This document shows positions 13,804 to 23,448 of a stretch of 37,481 bases of DNA, piece after piece (position 1 is the first letter of the stretch; every line of letters begins with the position of its first letter). The translations under genes and the position numbers were made by a program. The notes beneath the pieces are model-generated. The model saw only the letters and a list, made by a program, of their open reading frames with translations. It had not been told where the DNA came from and did not search any database. This stretch comes from Candidatus Moraniibacteriota bacterium (lineage in GTDB: Bacteria; Patescibacteriota; Minisyncoccia; JAHIHE01; DAOVOJ01): assembly GCA_030629775.1 (NCBI GenBank), contig DAOVOJ010000001.1:1-37481 (forward strand), read 5' to 3'.

Positions 13804-13963
13804 TCATGTATGAGTGTATGAGTTGACCTTTTTTGTTTTTGCTGTATTATTGAATTATTGTATTACTCTATTGTTATATTGTTAAGTTTGCTATTTTCTA
13901 GTTTCTAATGGCCTATTTTTCAGAGATTGAATTTTAAGAAGCTAAAAAGCTAAGAAGCTAAAA

Positions 13964-14036
13964 CGGGGCGTAGCGTAACGGCTAACGCACTTGGTTTGGG
14001 ACCAAGGGACTCCGGGTTCGAATCCCGGCGCCCCGA
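13964..14036 (+). tRNA. tRNA-Pro (anticodon TGG)
   Basis: Hand-folded cloverleaf: acceptor cggggcg/cgccccg, D stem gcgt/acgc, anticodon stem cttgg/ccaag with loop ttTGGga, and T arm ccggg-ttcgaat-cccgg. CCA is not encoded. Confidence 0.9.
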
Positions 14037-14080
14037 CAAGACGAAATTTGACGGATTTTATCAAGTTTTAGAGTAATCTT

Positions 14081-15159: not shown

Positions 15160-15204
15160 CTTTAGAAAAAGCAACTCTGCGAGGGGTTGTTTTTGTTTTG
15201 TTGC

Positions 15205-15233
15205 TTGAATTATTAGTGGTTTAATGATAACAT
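15205..15233 (+). promoter_or_regulatory. Candidate promoter of the methylase-nuclease-methylase operon
   Basis: TTGAAT-N17-TAACAT, about 50 nt upstream of 15285. Confidence 0.3.
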
Positions 15234-15284
15234 AAGAGCAAGGAAAAGGGGAGGGGATTTTGATTAGAAAATAAAAGACTAACT

Positions 15285-16067
15285 ATGCCAATTTTTAATG
15301 ATATTGATTTAAAAAATTGGAAAGAATCAGAAATTTGGACTGATAGTTTGTGGATGATTTCAGAACGGGATAAGTCAGGAAAACACAGCAATTTTTATCA
15401 CGGAAATTTTGTTCCACAAATTCCACGCCAGTTTATCTTGCGATACACAAAAAAGAACGATATAGTGCTTGATCCATTTGTTGGAAACGGAACAACCGCC
15501 TATGAAGCAGAGAGCTTAAAAAGGAATTTTATCGGGATTGATATTCAAAAAAGTTTAATAAATAAAATCAAAAAGAATTTAGATCAAAAGAATAATCTTT
15601 TTGAATTATTGACTGGTGATAGCGCAAATAAAAATACTTTTGAGCAAGTAAAAGAAATTTTTAAAAAACATAAAAAGAAAAATATTCAGCTGGCAATTTT
15701 ACATCCGCCGTATGCGGATATAGTAAAATTTAGCAGTCATAAAGAAGATTTGTCTAACGCAAAATCATTAAAAGAATTTTTAAGCAAATTTTCACAAGTT
15801 TTGGAAAATGCTATTTCAATTTTAGAAAGAAGTAGATATTTAATTATTGTTATTGGTGATAAATATACAAAAGGTCAATGGATTCCTTTAGGATTTTATT
15901 GTATGAATGAAGCGCAAAAATTGGGATTAACTTTGAAAAGTGTTATTATAAAAAATATGGAGGGAAATCGCGCTAAACAAAACAAAGAAGGTATTTGGCG
16001 ATACCGCGCGCTTTCAAGCGATTATTATATTTTTAAACATGAATATATTTTAGTTTTTAAAAATTGA
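15285..16067 (+). CDS. SAM-dependent DNA amino-methyltransferase (N6-A or N4-C)
   Basis: Motif I VLDPFVGNGTTAYEAESLKRNFIGIDI lies upstream of motif IV ILHPPYADI. A motif X-like FVPQIPRQFI precedes motif I. Confidence 0.75.
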   Translation: MPIFNDIDLKNWKESEIWTDSLWMISERDKSGKHSNFYHGNFVPQIPRQFILRYTKKNDIVLDPFVGNGTTAYEAESLKRNFIGIDIQKSLINKIKKNLDQKNNLFELLTGDSANKNTFEQVKEIFKKHKKKNIQLAILHPPYADIVKFSSHKEDLSNAKSLKEFLSKFSQVLENAISILERSRYLIIVIGDKYTKGQWIPLGFYCMNEAQKLGLTLKSVIIKNMEGNRAKQNKEGIWRYRALSSDYYIFKHEYILVFKN

Positions 16068-16071
16068 AATT

Positions 16072-17241
16072 ATGACAACACATGTATTTATAGTTGATTC
16101 AAAAACATTTAAACTTCACTTAGAGTATCTTTTTGCTGGAACGGGAGCGAAAGATAACCATATTGATTTTAATAACTCGGAAACGACTACTTTACATCAC
16201 ACAAAAGAGAATATATTAGCAGGTATGATTGCTGATGCAAACAGAATAAGACGAGGCGACCAAATAATTTTTTATTTACAGCAAGATTTTTCTAAAAAAA
16301 TATTTGAGGGTAAATTTTTCGGCATATTTACGGCTAAAAGTGATTGGTCTTTTTTAGATAATAATGATCATAATCAATATTTAGGCAATGAGCTTGGAAA
16401 ATCTTTAACATTCAGAACTATTATTGAACCATATAAAGTTTATTCCGAAGGTGTGACAGAATGGGAAGCGCTAGATGAAATAAAGAATATACAATCCCCG
16501 AATCAAATGCTTTGGAGTTTAATTTATCGTAAATTAAAAGGCAATCGTGGAAATACCATGATAACTATTTATGAGTCTGAAAGGTTGTGTCAATTAATTA
16601 GGGATAAAAATTCTAGACAAGAGATTGATGTTAATAATCGTAAGCTGACATTTGATCAAGATAGTCAAAAAATAATTTTAACTTCAGAAAATATAAATGA
16701 TTATATTGGAAGAAGGGAAGAAATGGATTTACTTCCGAGATTAATGGCTAAATATCAGGAGAATAAGTCATTTGAAACTCATCTACAGGCTTATATTGTA
16801 AGAAATATAGGGAAAGGAGTAAACGAATCGCTTGATAATTATGTTTTGGGACAAAATCTTGAGTTTGAATGGCTTGGAAATGAAGTGTCTTGCGGTGTTG
16901 GCATGCAAAGAATCGATATAATGATTTCAACAAATATAAACGATCAAAGAATTTTAATACCAGTAGAATTAAAATCAGTTGAAGCTGATGTAGTTAATGT
17001 AAAACAGATACAAAGATATATTGATTGGATAGAGCAATATTATACCCCTAACAGGCAAAGTGACATACAGCCAGTTTTGATTTCTAAAAAAATAAACAGT
17101 AAGAGCACGGAAAAATACCAAAGAATTATTGCCACTTTTAACGATTTCAATACTCAAAATTCTAGAAGGTGTAGTAATTTAAAATATATTGAGTATCATT
17201 TAGAAGATGATAACTTGATTTTTGAAGAAATAAATTATTGA
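16072..17241 (+). CDS. Putative restriction endonuclease: N-terminal PUA/EVE-like region plus C-terminal PD-(D/E)xK core
   Basis: It is tightly packed between two methylases (4-nt and 2-nt gaps). The C-terminal GMQRIDIMIS...ILIPVELKS fits D...ExK. The N-terminal HVFIVDSKTF...RRGDQIIFY...GKFFGIFTAKS resembles PUA-like reader folds, but weakly. Confidence 0.5.
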   Translation: MTTHVFIVDSKTFKLHLEYLFAGTGAKDNHIDFNNSETTTLHHTKENILAGMIADANRIRRGDQIIFYLQQDFSKKIFEGKFFGIFTAKSDWSFLDNNDHNQYLGNELGKSLTFRTIIEPYKVYSEGVTEWEALDEIKNIQSPNQMLWSLIYRKLKGNRGNTMITIYESERLCQLIRDKNSRQEIDVNNRKLTFDQDSQKIILTSENINDYIGRREEMDLLPRLMAKYQENKSFETHLQAYIVRNIGKGVNESLDNYVLGQNLEFEWLGNEVSCGVGMQRIDIMISTNINDQRILIPVELKSVEADVVNVKQIQRYIDWIEQYYTPNRQSDIQPVLISKKINSKSTEKYQRIIATFNDFNTQNSRRCSNLKYIEYHLEDDNLIFEEINY

Positions 17242-17243
17242 TT

Positions 17244-18323
17244 ATGAACTATATCGGTTCTAAATTATCACTTCTTGAATTTTTAGAAAATTCAATTAAT
17301 AAAGTAGTTAACAAAGACTGCCATGTTTTTTGTGATTTATTTGCTGGGACTGGAATTGTTGGGAATTATTTTAAAAAGAAAGGGTATAAAATAATCGCTA
17401 ATGATATTCAATATTATAGCTATGTTTTAAATAAACATTATATTGAAAATCACAAAGAATTAATGTTCTCAAAGTTAATAAGAGAATTATCTGAATTAAA
17501 AAAAGTAAAAACAGAAAACAGAAAAGATTTTGTTTGTGATTATTTGGAAAATTTAAAAGAAGTTAAAGGATTTGTTTATAAAAATTATTGTTTAGGCGGA
17601 ACGGAAGATAGAGAAATACAAAGGCAATATTTTTCAGACGCAAACGGAATGCGATGTGATGCGATAAGAAAGAAGATTGAAGAATGGAGAAAAGAGAAAT
17701 TGATAAATAATAATGAATATTATTTTTTGCTAACAAGTTTAATTGAATCAGTTGATAAATGCGCGAATACTGCTTCTGTTTATGGTGCATTTTTGAAAAA
17801 ATTAAAAGAATCCGCGCAAAAAAGTTTTGTTTTAAAACCAGCTGAATTAATTATTAATGATCAAGAACATAAAGTTTATAATGAAGACATAAATGTTTTA
17901 ACAAAAAAAATAAAAGGGGATATTCTATATTTAGATCCTCCATATAATCACAGGCAATATGCGTCAAATTATCACATACTTGAAACAATCGCAAAATATG
18001 ATAATCCCAAAATTCATGGCAAAACTGGATTAAGAGATTATGAAAATCAAAAGTCATTATATTGTTCTCGCGTGGAAGCAAAAAATGCTTTTAAAGATTT
18101 AATTTCAAAGGCAAAAGTAAAATATATCTTTTTAAGTTATAACAACGAAGGAATAATGTCTTTAGAAGATATAAAAGAAATTATGAGTTTGCGCGGGGAG
18201 TATGGACATTTTACAAAAGATTATAACAGATTTAAGGCAGATAAAAATAGAAATTATAAAGCAGACAGAACAGTTGAATATTTACATTATGTTGTTTGTG
18301 ATTCTGCAAAAATTGGTTTATAG
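17244..18323 (+). CDS. Dam-family (D12 class) N6-adenine DNA methyltransferase
   Basis: N-terminal MNYIGSKLSLL, motif I FCDLFAGTGIVG and motif IV LYLDPPYN. The ATG at 17244 is preferred over the TTG at 17238. Confidence 0.85.
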   Translation: MNYIGSKLSLLEFLENSINKVVNKDCHVFCDLFAGTGIVGNYFKKKGYKIIANDIQYYSYVLNKHYIENHKELMFSKLIRELSELKKVKTENRKDFVCDYLENLKEVKGFVYKNYCLGGTEDREIQRQYFSDANGMRCDAIRKKIEEWRKEKLINNNEYYFLLTSLIESVDKCANTASVYGAFLKKLKESAQKSFVLKPAELIINDQEHKVYNEDINVLTKKIKGDILYLDPPYNHRQYASNYHILETIAKYDNPKIHGKTGLRDYENQKSLYCSRVEAKNAFKDLISKAKVKYIFLSYNNEGIMSLEDIKEIMSLRGEYGHFTKDYNRFKADKNRNYKADRTVEYLHYVVCDSAKIGL

Positions 18324-18344
18324 CTCTCTCAAAATTTACATAAA

Positions 18345-18369
18345 AAGAGGAATAAGATCCTCTTTTTTT
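18345..18369 (+). terminator. Rho-independent terminator after the methylase
   Basis: aagagga-ataaga-tcctctt followed by T5. Confidence 0.6.
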
Positions 18370-18422
18370 GTACTTGTTTTTACTGTTCTATGTATGTTTT
18401 GTATTTTATGATGTAAAAATCC

Positions 18423-18450
18423 TTGACATATATTTTATTTATGCTAATCT
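18423..18450 (+). promoter_or_regulatory. Candidate promoter giving a leaderless lexA-like mRNA
   Basis: TTGACA-N16-TAATCT. The A of the ATG (18457) lies 7 nt after the -10, and there is no SD. Confidence 0.4.
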
Positions 18451-18456
18451 ATAAAT

Positions 18457-19137
18457 ATGGAGATTTCAAAGCTTACTAAAAAACAACGAAAAGTATTCAA
18501 TTTAATAGAGTCGTATTTTAATAAATATGGCTGTTCTCCTACAATCACTGAATTAAAAGAAGCATTAGCCGTCAATTCTTTACGAACTGTTGTTCAATAT
18601 CTTGAAGCACTAGAGAAAAAAGGATTTATTTATCGCAAACATAATCAAAAAAGAGGCATAGAGCTTGCAAACATAGGAACGACAACGGATTTTGACACGA
18701 TATTATTGCCAGTCGTTGCGTCTGTTGGATGCGATGATGCAAGCATATTCGCGGATGAAAAAATAGATGAATATATAACCATAGATAAAAATTTTATTCC
18801 AGGTGGGAAAAGTATTAAGGATATGGTGGTGGTTAAAGCAATAGGCGCGAGTATGCAAGAAGCGGGAATCAGTTCAGGCGATTATATATTAGTAGAAAAA
18901 ATTAATACTGCACAGGCGCAAGAAAATGATCGCGTGGTAGCAATAATAGATGACAATATTGTTATAAAGAAGCTTCATTTTGCAGAAAATGCCATAATTT
19001 TAAATCCCGAATCAAAAAACAAACACTACAAACCGATAATAATGAAAAGAGATTTTTATATTCCAGGGCGGGTAGTGGATGTTATTAAAATGAAACCTGA
19101 TTTAGAAATTAAATATATACCAATAGAAAATAATTAA
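18457..19137 (+). CDS. LexA-like repressor (winged-helix DNA-binding domain plus S24 autopeptidase)
   Basis: N-terminal CSPTITELKEALAVNSLRTVVQYLEALEKKGFIYR is LexA_DNA_bind-like. Also present are a VGCDD cleavage-site region, Ser in GASM and Lys in VIKKL. Confidence 0.8.
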   Translation: MEISKLTKKQRKVFNLIESYFNKYGCSPTITELKEALAVNSLRTVVQYLEALEKKGFIYRKHNQKRGIELANIGTTTDFDTILLPVVASVGCDDASIFADEKIDEYITIDKNFIPGGKSIKDMVVVKAIGASMQEAGISSGDYILVEKINTAQAQENDRVVAIIDDNIVIKKLHFAENAIILNPESKNKHYKPIIMKRDFYIPGRVVDVIKMKPDLEIKYIPIENN

Positions 19138-19154
19138 CTAATCTAATTTAAAAC

Positions 19155-19406
19155 ATGGAAAATAAAGAAAGAGCCGTTGAGGCTTTAGAAAAAATTGAAA
19201 AGGTAATTGACGAAATAAGAGATATGTTCCCTGATATCAAAAAAGAGCAGATTAAAATTTTTGTTAAGAATAAGAAATATAATGATCCTGTTAAAATATT
19301 AAAAAAAGTTGATAGGATAATTATAAATTATAACGAAAGCAACGCTGAAAGAAAATTGGAAAGTCTATTAGGATTTTTAGGTATCACTGTTAAAAAAGAA
19401 AAATAA
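19155..19406 (+). CDS. Hypothetical 83-aa helical protein
   Basis: The ORF starts 17 nt after the lexA-like stop and is co-oriented. No family recognised and no SD. Confidence 0.45.
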   Translation: MENKERAVEALEKIEKVIDEIRDMFPDIKKEQIKIFVKNKKYNDPVKILKKVDRIIINYNESNAERKLESLLGFLGITVKKEK

Positions 19407-19464
19407 AAAACTAAATTGGAAAGTTTTAAGGGTTTTAGAGCATGAAATAATAAAAAATTTTGAT

Positions 19465-19490
19465 AAAACAATTAATAGAATAATTGTTTT
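19465..19490. promoter_or_regulatory. Perfect 10-bp palindrome upstream of the 1190-aa gene
   Basis: aaaacaatta-atagaa-taattgtttt. It could be an operator or a weak terminator. Confidence 0.3.
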
Positions 19491-19535
19491 CTTAGAAAGT
19501 AAAAATAATTAAACAATATTTAAGTATTTAAAATA

Positions 19536-22500
19536 ATGGATAATATAAGCCAAATCATTTCACCAGACCAATTTTCTAAACTTTGTAAGCATCTTTTTGC
19601 TGCTGAATTTGATGATTTTCAAACTATTGATGATAGCGGTGGCGATAAAGGAAATGATGGGTATTCAGAAAAGCAAAAAACACTTTTTCAACTTTACTGT
19701 CCCAAAAAACCAAACAAAGCAACTGATTCAAAATGTAAATTAAAAATAAAAGAGGATTTGGATAAAGCAAAAGAACTTGTTGATTCTGGAAAATATATTA
19801 TTGAAAAATGGATTTTTGTTACCCCCGCGGAACTACGAGAGGATGTTCATACTTATATTAGAACAGAGGCTGCGGAGAGAGGGTTTATTGGTATAGCGTG
19901 GGCAAGTCCCAAGTTGACAGTATTTTTTACAAATCATTCCAATTTACGAAGTCAATTTCCAGATTTAATTCAGCCAGACATTGAACAGAAAATAGATTTA
20001 TTAGATTTAAAAATTACAGGGCATACGGAATCAGTCAACGATGTCAAGAGGAAATATCGAACGAAGTTGGAACAAAATTATCAACGGCGTATTGACGAAG
20101 CAAGGATAAAAATAGATGATGAAAAAAACGAAGCAGCAAAAAAGGAATATGAAACAATTTTAAGAGATTTAAATTCGGAATCAGAAAAAATAGACCCGCA
20201 TCTTTTTTTTCGAGTTCATAATAATTTAGGTGCTTGTGAATTAAATCTCGGAAACACAAGAGAAGCAGCGAAATTTTTTGAAAAAGCTTATTCGTTTAAA
20301 CCAGACCAGTCAATAGCAATTGCGAATTATGCTTTATCAAAATCCTTAAAAGATAATCCAAAAGAAGGGCTGGTAATAATTGAAGATCTGTTAAAAAAAC
20401 ATCCTACTGATAATCACGCAATTTCTGTTAAGGCAAATATTCTGTACACTTTAGAAAGATATGAAGAGTTGATACCATTCCTGAAAGAAAAGGGCAAAAC
20501 AGCGTTGTCGTGCTGGTATGAGGGATTTGAAGCAATGTCCAAGGATGACTACGATACCGCAATTTTCTGCTTTGAGAAAGTTATTCATCTTGAACCAAAA
20601 AATATTAAAGCGTACTTTTTAGCTGCTCAAAATGTCATGATTGGGTCAAGAGAATTTGTTAAAAATAATGCTTTCCTGCCGGATAAAATACCTTCCGCTA
20701 TAAAAGAAAAATTCACGAAAGCTATTTCTTGGTTAAAAAGGGCAGTTGAACTTTTACAAGACAAGGAACAGAACAAGGAACAGAAAGCTGATTTAGAGAT
20801 GGCATATACTAATTTATCTGGCTGCTTTGTTGCTCTTGGTTTATTTGATGAGGCAATTGAATTTGCGTTAAAAGCTATCTCTATTGATCCCATATCTCCT
20901 ACCCCTTTTCTTAATAAGGGGATAGCTCAACTAAAACTTGGTAAGCATAAAGAAGCAATAAGTAGTTTTAAAAAATATAAAGATTTAGGAGGAGACGAAT
21001 TTAGCGTGGATAGACACAGTGCTTTTTGTTCTTTGAGAACTGGTGATTTAGATACCGCGGAAAAAATAATTATTCCCTTACTAGAACAAGAAAAAGATTT
21101 AGATTTGGATGTTGCAGAACTTGGAGTGGAGTTATATTCAAAAAGATTGGACAATGACAAGTCAGAAGCATTATTAAAAAAACTGGAAGAAAACTTTTCT
21201 GATAATTCTCAAGCGTTACGAATTCGTGCCGCACATCTTCAGAGATTGGGAATGTCGGGCGTGGAATTATTACTTCAGAAGGCATTGGAAAGCTCAAAAT
21301 CAGAATCGGAAAAAATGTTGACTGAAATGGATTTAGCTGATTTCTTATATAGCACAAAAGATTATTCCCGTGCTGCAGAAATATATCGGAAATATATCAA
21401 CATTGAAGAAACAACTACGGGAACTCTTAAATATGCTGAATGTCTATATAATTCAGGACAGTATGGAAATCTCTTAAAATGGATAGATACATTAGGCACA
21501 TCTGTGCGTAAACATTCTTTAATTCAACAGGTAGAAGCGTATTCGAATCTTTACTTGGGTAATCTTGAAAAAGCATCATCTTCTTTTAGAAAACTTTTTG
21601 AAAAAACCTCAGACAATCTTAAATACCTCGTATTTTATGGAATGTGTAGATTTAGACTGGGCAAAGAATATGAGGCAAAAAAAGCTTATGACGCTGTAAG
21701 AAATAGAGTAACTGAAACTGACGATGTTGTGATATTATCGGGCGGTTATGAATTTATCGGGGAACGGAAAATTGCATTGGAGCTTACTTATAAAGCTTTA
21801 GAAAACGATTCTAATAATCCAAAAGCTCATCTTGCTTACATTTTTACATTTTTACGTAGGGAACAGGCGGGAGGAAAAGATTTTGAAGATAAATATGTAA
21901 AACTATTTCAAAAATCAATTGGCGAATTTAGTAAAAGGTTTCCCGAAGAAAAAGCGCTACAAACTTTCGAAGTAAAAGATAAAGGCATCGGTCCCATGTT
22001 AAAAATGGCTGATCAGTTAGCAGAGTCAACAGAAAATGCAACTGGGCTTTATAGAGAATCCAAGGTTCCGCTTGCTGTTATCCCAAAGTTTACAAACAGA
22101 AAACCATTTGATGTCTGGGCTGCCTTTACTCAAATGCCAGATGTTGGGATAAAAATTTTATTTGGCTCGCCAGACGAGCTTTCAACAGAAGCTTTAACAA
22201 TTAAAGAGTATTGCGACAATTCTATTGTTGTTGATATTTATCCATTATTTCTTCTGACTCACTTTAATCAGCTTGAATTATTATCAAAACTATTCAAGAA
22301 AATTTATGTGCATCAAAGTGTAATTGATGAATTAACAGAATCAATCGACGAGCATAGAATTTCGGTGCGCAAAGGACAAACAATTTTTGGAAAAATTGAT
22401 GGTCAGCACAAGTTAATTGATATTTCTCCAGAACAAGTACAAAAAACAGTTGCTTCGTTAGAAAAAATTAGAGATTTTTTAAGCAAGGATAAATCTTGCG

Positions 22501-23108
22501 AAATTCACGGATTATCCAAAGAAAGGTCGGGAGATGAACGCAATTTAATTAACGCTCTTCATGAAACAACAAAAAATAGCATTTTTCTTGCTGAAGATCT
22601 TAATTTGCCCATTTATTGTGATGACCGCATATTGCGAGTTATTTTAAAAAATGAACACAGAGTAAAATCTTTCTCTACTCAATCTTTAATCAATTTAGCA
22701 CAAATAAAAGGGGTAATATCGCTTGATAAGCGATTTGAGTTACAGAAAGAAATGATAGGACTTAAATATGAATTTCTTCCAATAGATGCGACTTTTATAT
22801 ATTATTTTTTAAAAAAGGCAAGCTATAAGATAGAGAAAATACAAGATATAATCTTTACACTTGTGCAAAAAGAAACAAGTATTCAATCTTTGGAAGTGGT
22901 ACTTGCTGATCTTTTCTTTCTACTTTTAATTGAACGGTTAATAGACAACAAAACAAAACTTAAAATATTTAGGAGCATATTATCGCAAGCTTCGTTAAAC
23001 CACGATTTAGATAATATAGAAGAAGGAATTTTTATGAATCTTCAAAAAAAAGTAAAACCTGAAAAGCATAAACAATTAAAAGATATGCTTAAAATTATTT
23101 TTTCGTGA
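19536..23108 (+). CDS. 1190-aa protein: Mrr-like nuclease-type N-terminus, long TPR array, PIN-like C-terminal domain
   Basis: The N-terminus FSKLCKHLFAAEF..IDDSGGDKGNDGY..LFQLYCPKK resembles the Mrr-cat pattern. Residues ~230-800 contain many 34-aa TPR-like units (e.g. AAKFFEKAYSFKPD, AIFCFEKVIHLEPKN, AIEFALKAISIDP). The C-terminus has IVVDIYPLF, VIDELTE and AEDLNLPIYCDDRIL in PIN-like acidic spacing. No P-loop seen. Confidence 0.6.
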   Translation: MDNISQIISPDQFSKLCKHLFAAEFDDFQTIDDSGGDKGNDGYSEKQKTLFQLYCPKKPNKATDSKCKLKIKEDLDKAKELVDSGKYIIEKWIFVTPAELREDVHTYIRTEAAERGFIGIAWASPKLTVFFTNHSNLRSQFPDLIQPDIEQKIDLLDLKITGHTESVNDVKRKYRTKLEQNYQRRIDEARIKIDDEKNEAAKKEYETILRDLNSESEKIDPHLFFRVHNNLGACELNLGNTREAAKFFEKAYSFKPDQSIAIANYALSKSLKDNPKEGLVIIEDLLKKHPTDNHAISVKANILYTLERYEELIPFLKEKGKTALSCWYEGFEAMSKDDYDTAIFCFEKVIHLEPKNIKAYFLAAQNVMIGSREFVKNNAFLPDKIPSAIKEKFTKAISWLKRAVELLQDKEQNKEQKADLEMAYTNLSGCFVALGLFDEAIEFALKAISIDPISPTPFLNKGIAQLKLGKHKEAISSFKKYKDLGGDEFSVDRHSAFCSLRTGDLDTAEKIIIPLLEQEKDLDLDVAELGVELYSKRLDNDKSEALLKKLEENFSDNSQALRIRAAHLQRLGMSGVELLLQKALESSKSESEKMLTEMDLADFLYSTKDYSRAAEIYRKYINIEETTTGTLKYAECLYNSGQYGNLLKWIDTLGTSVRKHSLIQQVEAYSNLYLGNLEKASSSFRKLFEKTSDNLKYLVFYGMCRFRLGKEYEAKKAYDAVRNRVTETDDVVILSGGYEFIGERKIALELTYKALENDSNNPKAHLAYIFTFLRREQAGGKDFEDKYVKLFQKSIGEFSKRFPEEKALQTFEVKDKGIGPMLKMADQLAESTENATGLYRESKVPLAVIPKFTNRKPFDVWAAFTQMPDVGIKILFGSPDELSTEALTIKEYCDNSIVVDIYPLFLLTHFNQLELLSKLFKKIYVHQSVIDELTESIDEHRISVRKGQTIFGKIDGQHKLIDISPEQVQKTVASLEKIRDFLSKDKSCEIHGLSKERSGDERNLINALHETTKNSIFLAEDLNLPIYCDDRILRVILKNEHRVKSFSTQSLINLAQIKGVISLDKRFELQKEMIGLKYEFLPIDATFIYYFLKKASYKIEKIQDIIFTLVQKETSIQSLEVVLADLFFLLLIERLIDNKTKLKIFRSILSQASLNHDLDNIEEGIFMNLQKKVKPEKHKQLKDMLKIIFS

Positions 23109-23298
23109 TTTACATAGTTTGCATAGTTAATAGAAAAAATAGAAACTGTTCACTCAAAAAAAATTTGGACTTTTGTAAAAAACGAGACAAAATCTCATTT
23201 TGCACTTATATAGAACTGTGTAATTTCGATTCTGTTTAATCTGTTTTTTATATGTGCAAGAACCATAATATTATTTCTTTTCCTTGGTTAATAAGCTG

Positions 23299-23398
23299 CT
23301 TATCCTCTCCAACTTTCCCTCAACTCTCTCCCAATTCTCCAAAATCCCCACCCAAACCATCGGGAAATTGTTCCCAACTGTATCCTGTTGCCCCGACA
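23299..23398 (+). repeat. Direct repeat B (distal island junction with a degenerate tRNA-Pro 3' fragment)
   Basis: Aligns with 15060..15159. It ends atcctgttgccccgaca. Confidence 0.85.
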
Positions 23399-23412: not shown

Positions 23413-23448
23413 GAAGTCTGGCTTTCTGTAGGAAGCCAGGCTTCTTTT
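23413..23448 (+). terminator. Strong terminator hairpin directly after the distal repeat
   Basis: gaagtctggctt-tctgtagg-aagccaggcttc (12 bp, one G.U) followed by TTTT. No + strand gene ends nearby, so it may be the displaced tRNA-Pro terminator. Confidence 0.55.

Follow-up and report, generated by a model that had tools for sequence, protein, structure and literature searches.

The subject of this work is a set of three co-oriented open reading frames (ORFs) on contig DAOVOJ010000001.1 of a Candidatus Moraniibacteriota bacterium. The window, i.e. the whole stretch of DNA that was analysed, is 37,481 nucleotides (nt) long. Gene 1 codes for a LexA-family repressor, orf83 for a small helical protein, and gene 3 for a member of the published TPR-GreA/B-C-PIN ("TGP") antiphage family. 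The genes lie in an island (15160–23288) with a GC content of 0.30, flanked by DNA with values of 0.41 and 0.38. A restriction-modification (R-M) operon of the same orientation is situated directly 5' of them (15285..18323). An earlier note, made from the sequence alone, had described three co-oriented genes in an AT-rich island beside an R-M operon, and both the coordinates and the GC values agree with this description. Loci of homologues are labelled L008–L051, and LexA homologues carry P-numbers. The features of the three-gene unit are as follows (aa, amino acids):

18342..18367, + strand: terminator-like hairpin and T-run, 3' of the R-M operon, parting it from the LexA unit; also present 5' of the L043 LexA homologue
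18391..18404, + strand: TGTAT-N4-TGTAT, candidate operator; similar TGTAT-rich blocks lie 5' of related LexA genes
18423..18450, + strand: promoter-like TTGACA (18423-18428), 16-nt spacer and TAATCT (18445-18450), 6 nt before the ATG at 18457
18457..19137, + strand: gene 1 (226 aa), LexA-family repressor with winged helix-turn-helix and S24 autopeptidase; Ser132 (GASM) and Lys171 (IKKL) form the dyad
19155..19406, + strand: orf83 (83 aa), small helical protein with the motif LKILKRVxGIIKNYNExNAERKL
19405..19509, + strand: remnant of a vsr 3'-end, beginning at the orf83 stop codon; last 35 residues, with 77% aa identity to the C-terminus of the L046 Vsr
19536..23108, + strand: gene 3 (1190 aa), TGP protein
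23418..23439, strand not assigned: hairpin directly after the right repeat of the island, likely terminator of the LexA-orf83-gene 3 unit

The -10 hexamer ends 6 nt before the start codon, which implies a leaderless mRNA of the lexA-like gene. The layout TTGAC(A/T), 16–17 nt, TAAT(C/A)T, 6 nt, ATG is kept in L017, L043 and L046, where the LexA genes are 81–97% identical, and this conservation supports leaderless expression, with which the earlier note had reckoned. The window promoter itself scores under the -10 threshold of the prediction tool. No terminator-like sites were found on the + strand between 18367 and 23418, so the three genes are arranged like an operon. A second TGTAT site (TGTAT-N3-TGTAT, 13807-13819) is situated between the HU gene and tRNA-Pro; the window thus contains 2 such sites against 0.24 expected.

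The domain assignment of gene 1 made in the earlier note is borne out by profile hidden Markov model (HMM) matches to LexA_DNA_bind (PF01726, E 1.9e-15) and Peptidase_S24 (PF00717, E 7.4e-17) and by the catalytic dyad, whose motifs start at aa 130 (GASM) and aa 170 (IKKL). The columns of the Ser/Lys dyad are kept in 127 of 127 aligned LexA homologues. The protein also matches the lexA equivalog TIGR00498 with 129.3 bits at a cutoff of 110.95. The linker with the cleavage-site region reads VASVGCDD, giving V-G-C-D-D at the aligned site, while most of the aligned LexAs of Patescibacteria, housekeeping and island-linked, read A-G-C-D-N; the alignment of this site to A84-G85 of the E. coli protein is ambiguous by two residues. 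The pattern (A/V)-G-C-D-(N/D) (aa 87-93 of gene 1) is common to both groups of Patescibacteria LexAs, which have in addition a conserved C-terminal tail (..EI.YIPI..) absent in E. coli and B. subtilis LexA.

The product of orf83 belongs to a conserved but unannotated family of small proteins, and orf83 is a genuine gene. A full HMMER scan yielded 33 cluster representatives of 54–125 aa with 34–67% identity and a strong common motif. No match was found in Pfam, NCBIfam, PADLOC, PHROG or PDB, and there are no orf83 homologues in the other fetched loci. In L046 and L044 the slot after LexA is taken by DUF2188 proteins. A 29-nt similarity between orf83 and gene 3 was taken as chance. The remnant of vsr, the gene of a very-short-patch repair endonuclease, takes up most of the DNA between orf83 and gene 3, and in L025 an intact Dcm-Vsr pair stands immediately 5' of the TGP gene. 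The start of the remnant at the orf83 stop codon, taken together with the order of genes in L025, suggests that LexA and orf83 were, apparently as a unit, joined by recombination to a pre-existing Vsr-TGP arrangement.

Gene 3 and the TGP family

The product of gene 3 is composed of five regions:

aa 1-216 (19536..20183, + strand): LmuA-like domain, putative Mrr/PD-(D/E)xK fold; D27, D32, D33, D37, D41, K58, K70 and D74 invariant
aa ~187-780 (20094..21875, + strand): TPR array, presumed sensor/scaffold, recognised by Pfam
aa ~781-895 (21876..22220, + strand): helical linker at the position of the GreA/B-C domain in TGP proteins
aa 898-1035 (22227..22640, + strand): PIN domain PF20698; D900, D931, D1029 and D1030 invariant, E1021 nearly so
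aa 1046-1190 (22671..23108, + strand): conserved C-terminal helical domain, seen from conservation and the model

Conservation was judged over 22 homologues, all of which keep the acidic residues and lysines of the two putative active sites. The motifs quoted in the earlier note for genes 1 and 3 are all present; those of gene 3 are GGDKGNDG (aa 35), FQLYCPKK (aa 51), VVDIY (898), IDEL (930), AEDL (1019) and YCDDR (1027). The protein has no Walker A motif, as the note had also stated. Its reading of gene 3 holds as regards the Mrr-like N-terminus, the TPR units over ~600 aa and the PIN domain; the last of these, however, is not the end of the protein, being followed by ~145 aa of helical structure.

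The two central assignments are clear. Several TPR families of Pfam match aa 187-730 with E-values down to 8.8e-21. The segment 898-1035 matches PF20698, named "PIN domain associated with the TPR-GreAB-C-PIN system", with E 5.9e-18 and 65.9-69 bits at a cutoff of 27.8. The top Foldseek matches in PDB of the AlphaFold model of aa 770-1190 (pLDDT 86.6) are PIN proteins, PAE2754 with probability 1.0, and the PIN domain of SMG6 is also among the matches.

The first ~216 aa show homology to the Lamassu effector LmuA (PADLOC PDLC03852, E 7.6e-12). A search with a profile of the domain gave standalone proteins of ~300 aa, and three of them that were checked (~300-318 aa) match LmuA near full length with E 1e-33 to 4e-38. 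The domain of gene 3 differs from LmuA in being fused to TPR-PIN and not to the C-terminal region of LmuA. A Lamassu system at the locus is ruled out, as neither LmuB (SMC-like) nor LmuC was matched among the neighbours. In the N-terminal model (pLDDT 75.6) helices alternate with strands, and there are five short beta-strands. The structure closest to it is Avs4 (8dgf; probability 0.95, E 0.036), which has an Mrr-like nuclease at its N-terminus, and restriction endonucleases come next. The Mrr_cat profile matches the N-terminus over positions 4-98 of 115 with E 0.018, which is under threshold. No match was obtained with the profile of the domain against PDB or, by hhalign, with the N-terminus of the Mrr_cat-STAND protein of L043. 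Each of the structural matches is weak alone, but they agree with one another and with the strictly conserved D/K pattern. Avs4, an antiviral STAND protein with a C-terminal TPR-like sensor, has in common with gene 3 the overall logic, in which a nuclease effector is linked to a sensor made of repeats; it differs in that gene 3 lacks the STAND NTPase and P-loop, and in that Avs4 has no PIN domain.

The earlier note regarded the module as undescribed. As far as gene 3 is concerned this is not the case, for its architecture is that of the TGP proteins, in which one of 13 effectors, among them restriction endonuclease (REase), precedes a constant core of TPR, GreA/B-C and a PIN domain of a novel type (Kaur 2021, PMC8195603). 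Gene 3 is alike in the order of TPR and PF20698 PIN, in the REase-type N-terminal effector slot, in its size of ~1100-1200 aa, in sporadic spread and in defence-island context. It differs in that no GreA/B-C domain was detected between TPR and PIN. Gene 3 is therefore assigned to the family by its PIN type, its TPR array and its architecture, while one of the defining features is unconfirmed. In the AlphaFold2 model, which starts at aa 770, residues 770-895 are mostly helical (pLDDT 57-72 at aa 770-830) and give no Gre match in Foldseek; hhalign of the linker with E. coli GreA gave a probability of 0.1. A second difference concerns the surroundings: in the description by Kaur, Iyer, Burroughs & Aravind (2021, eLife e70394, PMC8195603) most TGP genes stand alone and conserved neighbours are few, whereas gene 3 is the third gene of a LexA-led unit and S24 proteins are the commonest neighbours. 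The TGP member Agp with its partner Bab (E. coli ECOR25) protects E. coli against phage T5 (bioRxiv 10.1101/2024.11.07.622273); the locus of gene 3 differs from it in having neither an amyloid motif nor a Bab-like partner. Gene 3 may have a similar antiphage function.

There are ~50 full-length homologues of gene 3 with 47-93% identity, all of ~1185 aa, and their source names, where given, are those of Patescibacteria (e.g. Paceibacterota, Minisyncoccota). A set of 185,579 species-representative genomes yielded only 8 loci, which belong to different lineages of the candidate phyla radiation (CPR). The neighbours of TGP genes include type II R-M (EcoO109I, AlwI) and type I R-M systems, GmrSD, HEPN/Toprim and large serine recombinases, so that the siting of the homologues in defence islands, which the earlier note had proposed to check, is indeed observed. 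A housekeeping TPR protein is ruled out by the sparse loci, their varied neighbourhoods and the defence/mobile setting.

In four further loci the LmuA-like domain of TGP proteins occurs alone as a protein of 271-348 aa (L035, L036 and L037, 8001-8816; L018, 3075-4121). Type I R-M adjoins it in L035, and in L036 a LexA homologue (P0155) lies ~150 kb off in a housekeeping context.

LexA-like proteins beside TGP genes and other immune genes

The neighbourhood survey covered 103 proteins within three genes either side of 21 TGP loci. Peptidase_S24 is the commonest Pfam family among them (6 members, 5 with LexA_DNA_bind, at 6 of the 21 loci), which answers positively the question raised in the earlier note as to whether S24 repressors co-occur with gene 3 homologues. 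The S24 gene is 5' of the TGP gene and co-oriented with it in the window and L017, in L023 and in L028 (with an 8-nt gap in L028). In L027 it is situated 1.7 kb 3' of the TGP gene, and in L008, L021 and L038 it is fused N-terminally to a D12 methyltransferase and divergent from the TGP gene. Altogether the TGP-linked S24 proteins fall into three sequence lineages and four arrangements. The three lineages mean that the association arose more than once.

The fused ORFs are 563-572 aa long (L008, 6207-7898; L021, 6208-7926; L038, 6207-7898; all on the - strand). That of L008 contains LexA_DNA_bind, Peptidase_S24 and D12, and the LexA, S24 and methyltransferase profiles that it matches also match those of L021 and L038. 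Each of the three stands at the head of an AlwI-type R-M operon, ~100 bp from the divergent TGP gene. An intergenic block common to the fusion loci contains, in L021, the sequence CTTACG-N4-CGTAAG. The fusion of an autocleavable repressor to a methyltransferase appears unusual.

Beyond the TGP loci, the contexts of eight LexA homologues were sampled. Six of the eight (51-89% identity) stand directly 5' of other immune-type cargo in the same orientation (loci L043, L044, L045, L046-L048, L049 and L050-L051):

P0065, 89% identity: DUF2188, then ThsB-type TIR; Dcm-HpaII-Vsr on the 5' side
P0067, 81% identity: Mrr_cat-STAND protein
P0072, 60% identity: DUF2188, TIR and caspase; conjugative-type element
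P0078, 54% identity: PDDEXK_1 and NERD genes
P0079, 52% identity: NmeDI, HNH, AbiJ and GmrSD
P0096, 51% identity: DUF4365 and others

The two most distant homologues (45% and 43% identity) have housekeeping neighbourhoods. The element of L044 that carries a LexA homologue codes for a relaxase, a T4 coupling protein, ParA and an integrase. No account of a recurrent layout of this kind in Patescibacteria, led by LexA and with immune cargo that can be exchanged, was found in the full-text literature searched, and the earlier note is only partly right in calling the module undescribed.

The cargo-linked LexA homologues often closely follow, or are divergent from, an R-M system or a ParB_N-N6_N4 methyltransferase. 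The latter is divergent from the S24 gene in L023 (5378-6742), L028 (2207-3493), L049 (6349-7692) and L050 (6335-7693), in each case on the - strand. A large serine recombinase is near the S24 gene in L028, L049 and L050, and SNase genes are present in L023 and L049. The set of ParB-methyltransferase and serine recombinase looks like the recurring backbone of a small integrative element.

Island borders and chromosomal setting

The following features border or accompany the unit:

13964..14037, + strand: tRNA-Pro (TGG), ~1 kb 5' of the island; a 98.7% identical tRNA precedes the related island in L017
15050..15159, + strand: left 110-nt direct repeat, C-rich, bordering the AT-rich island
15285-16067, + strand: N6_N4 methyltransferase of the R-M operon, HMM match
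16072-17241, + strand: 389-aa candidate endonuclease of the R-M operon, weak NucS_C/PD-(D/E)xK-like match
17238-18323, + strand: D12 adenine methyltransferase of the R-M operon, HMM match
23289..23398, + strand: right 110-nt direct repeat, 87% identity to the left copy

The remaining part of the window is ordinary chromosome with the ATP synthase operon, RNase Y, YmdB, HU, ThyX, SHMT and tRNAs; the ORFs checked outside the island are housekeeping or have no family match. The proteins of the window also occur unchanged on metagenome contigs, and by the names of the homologues the host is a CPR bacterium (Paceibacteria-like). The mobility of the island is evident from L017, a Paceibacterota contig. 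Positions 18037-23398 of the window are 95% identical to it in DNA sequence, and the flanks have no similarity even at the protein level except for tRNA-Pro and fragments of R-M genes. The R-M operon of L017 has decayed to these fragments, while LexA-orf83-gene 3 is intact and under purifying selection, with a ratio of nonsynonymous to synonymous divergence (pN/pS) of 0.08-0.17.

The divergence between the two islands is uneven. The tracts 19037-19636 and 18437-18636 differ by 3 and 1 nt, and 8-15 differences per 200 nt are typical elsewhere; synonymous divergence (pS) is 0.02 in orf83 and 0.14-0.15 in LexA and gene 3. The low-divergence tract covers the non-coding vsr remnant, and a recent recombination tract is therefore a more likely reason than constraint.

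The 110-nt element has at least five copies in L017 (11260-11370, 12671-12754, 13558-13661, 14701-14844 and 16629-16725), which separate small gene cassettes or short ORFs and are followed by a hairpin and T-run. It belongs to no Rfam family and has no significant fold. The repeat could be a cassette boundary, an att-like site or a miniature inverted-repeat transposable element (MITE).

Regulation of the unit and alternative explanations

We suggest that LexA-orf83-gene 3 is one transcription unit in an 8.1-kb mobile defence island, in which a TGP effector is gated by a portable LexA module; the probability of this explanation is estimated as roughly 0.5. The unit would extend from the leaderless promoter at 18423-18450 to the hairpin at 23418-23439. 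The LexA-like protein would repress its own promoter and in this way keep the potentially toxic effector low. Phage replication or cutting by the neighbouring R-M system may produce DNA damage and single-stranded DNA (ssDNA) and activate RecA; the activated RecA would then induce self-cleavage of the S24 protein, and the operon would be de-repressed. The TGP protein would in turn sense infection and act as a second-line, probably abortive nuclease, with the PIN domain cutting RNA and the Mrr-like domain cutting DNA. The direction of regulation is presumed, and SOS gating of the effector is plausible.

Several observations weigh against this explanation. In about 15 of the 21 TGP loci the three genes on each side include none for an S24 protein, which means that the repressor is optional for the effector. 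The V-G-C-D sequence of gene 1 in place of the canonical A-G (or C-G) makes its cleavage competence uncertain. The search for operators upstream of LexA genes yielded only the loose TGTAT-rich block and no firm LexA box, and in the window these repeats lie 5' of the -35 hexamer, an odd position for autorepression. The divergence of the S24 gene from the ParB-methyltransferase/recombinase set in four loci fits the switch of a mobile element, in which case SOS need not induce the cargo. In a rough neighbour-joining (NJ) tree the LexAs linked to islands are not set apart as a clade of their own. As for the effector, the Foldseek E-value of the N-terminal nuclease fold and its Mrr_cat score, the latter under the Pfam cutoff, are below usual significance; the GreA_GreB Pfam profile gives no match to aa 770-898 even at E 10, and the precomputed Pfam domains of the ~50 homologues contain no GreA/B-C.

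The strongest alternative is that the S24 protein serves a small integrative element as its maintenance switch, with gene 3 as co-transcribed defence cargo that is made while the repressor is intact; damage would then activate the other arm of the element (methyltransferase, recombinase) and not the effector. In this case the TGTAT motif would be where a divergent promoter is controlled. The four loci with a divergent ParB_N-N6_N4 methyltransferase, three of which have a large serine recombinase nearby, the conjugative-type element of L044, the direct repeats flanking the island and the adjoining tRNA fit as well, and several related loci agree with this logic no less than with SOS gating. The model for such logic is lambda cI-rexA-rexB. 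As in the SOS-controlled toxins (colicin operons, tisB, lexA-dinF), an S24 repressor is there co-transcribed with, or controls, a potentially lethal defence or toxin gene, and the cI mRNA from PRM is leaderless, as predicted for gene 1. The lambda operon differs in that gene 1 has the winged helix of LexA and not the cI/XRE domain, in its cargo, which here is a TGP protein, and in the host, here Patescibacteria. LexA-family proteins, moreover, are negative autoregulators. The window R-M operon is co-oriented with the LexA unit, with a terminator between, and not divergent; no recombinase, replication or transfer gene was found in the island or in the 37-kb window; and the viral contigs of IMG/VR contain no relatives of any of the three genes. 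We consider this alternative less likely than gating by LexA, but it is a serious rival. A prophage or viral immunity region is unsupported, there being no IMG/VR relatives and no phage genes near the locus within the window ORFs checked.

It is quite improbable that gene 1 is the housekeeping SOS repressor of the host and that defence genes were gathered around it by chance or by an insertion hotspot, with no dedicated regulation. Such an origin would agree with the score above the TIGR00498 cutoff, with the xGCDx site and C-terminal tail common to gene 1 and housekeeping Patescibacteria LexAs, and with the lack of a clean phylogenetic split between these and the island-linked proteins; the genome is covered by 37 kb only, which bears on the question of a second lexA. 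Gene 1, however, does not behave as a vertically inherited housekeeping gene: it lies in a low-GC block with 95% DNA identity to a genome of otherwise unrelated backbone. Immune-type cargo follows directly 3' in the same orientation in all six sampled homologues of at least 51% identity, one of which (60% identity) is on a conjugative-type element. Three unrelated S24 lineages adjoin TGP genes, and no terminator-like site separates lexA from gene 3.

Finally, a role of the LexA-like protein mainly as R-M controller (C-protein role), with linkage to gene 3 secondary to R-M-rich islands, is suggested by the LexA-S24-D12 fusions heading AlwI-type operons, by the homology of the window D12 methyltransferase directly 5' of lexA to the fusion methyltransferase (E 4e-46) and by methyltransferase/R-M genes within few genes in 8 of 9 S24-positive arrangements (none near the L027 S24), but it is very improbable, since the window lexA follows the R-M operon with a terminator in between, no TGTAT motif was detected at the R-M promoter of the window, and in L017 the unit is intact beside R-M fragments.

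The proposed gating of a TGP effector by LexA invites comparison with regulators of other immune operons. CapH/CapP, CapW/BrxR (WYL) and CapK/CapS are alike in being small regulatory modules 5' of interchangeable immune operons, with a presumed input of DNA damage or ssDNA. They differ in that the proteins are unrelated: gene 1 combines a predicted repressor and protease in one LexA-type polypeptide, presumably RecA-dependent and accompanied by a small helical partner.

A broader and more tentative proposal is that a LexA paralogue with a small partner (orf83 family or DUF2188) constitutes a portable DNA-damage-sensing "ignition" module for interchangeable second-line effectors (TGP, TIR, Mrr-STAND, caspase, GmrSD/AbiJ), typically placed just 3' of or divergent from R-M/methyltransferase genes. 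Breakage by restriction or phage replication would then license abortive effectors via RecA. If true, CapH/CapP, CapW and CapK/CapS would have in this module a counterpart based on RecA/LexA, one that is even fused to R-M in the LexA-S24-methyltransferase proteins.

The effector family was already described; the new part is the pairing of TGP with a portable LexA module that also fronts other immune genes. How bacteria silence lethal immune effectors until they are needed is a question under active study, and CapH/CapP, CapW and CapK/CapS are recent examples of dedicated regulators of immune operons that respond to DNA damage. A layout without function would leave the locus as a further member of a described family, situated in a defence island. 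If it is functional, it would provide the first recurrent gene partner for the TGP family and a context for the orf83 family. It would also mean that mobile defence islands have acquired copies of the classical RecA/LexA switch, which there couples first-line restriction to second-line effectors, and this in the Patescibacteria, a largely uncultured group with small genomes and little-known immunity.

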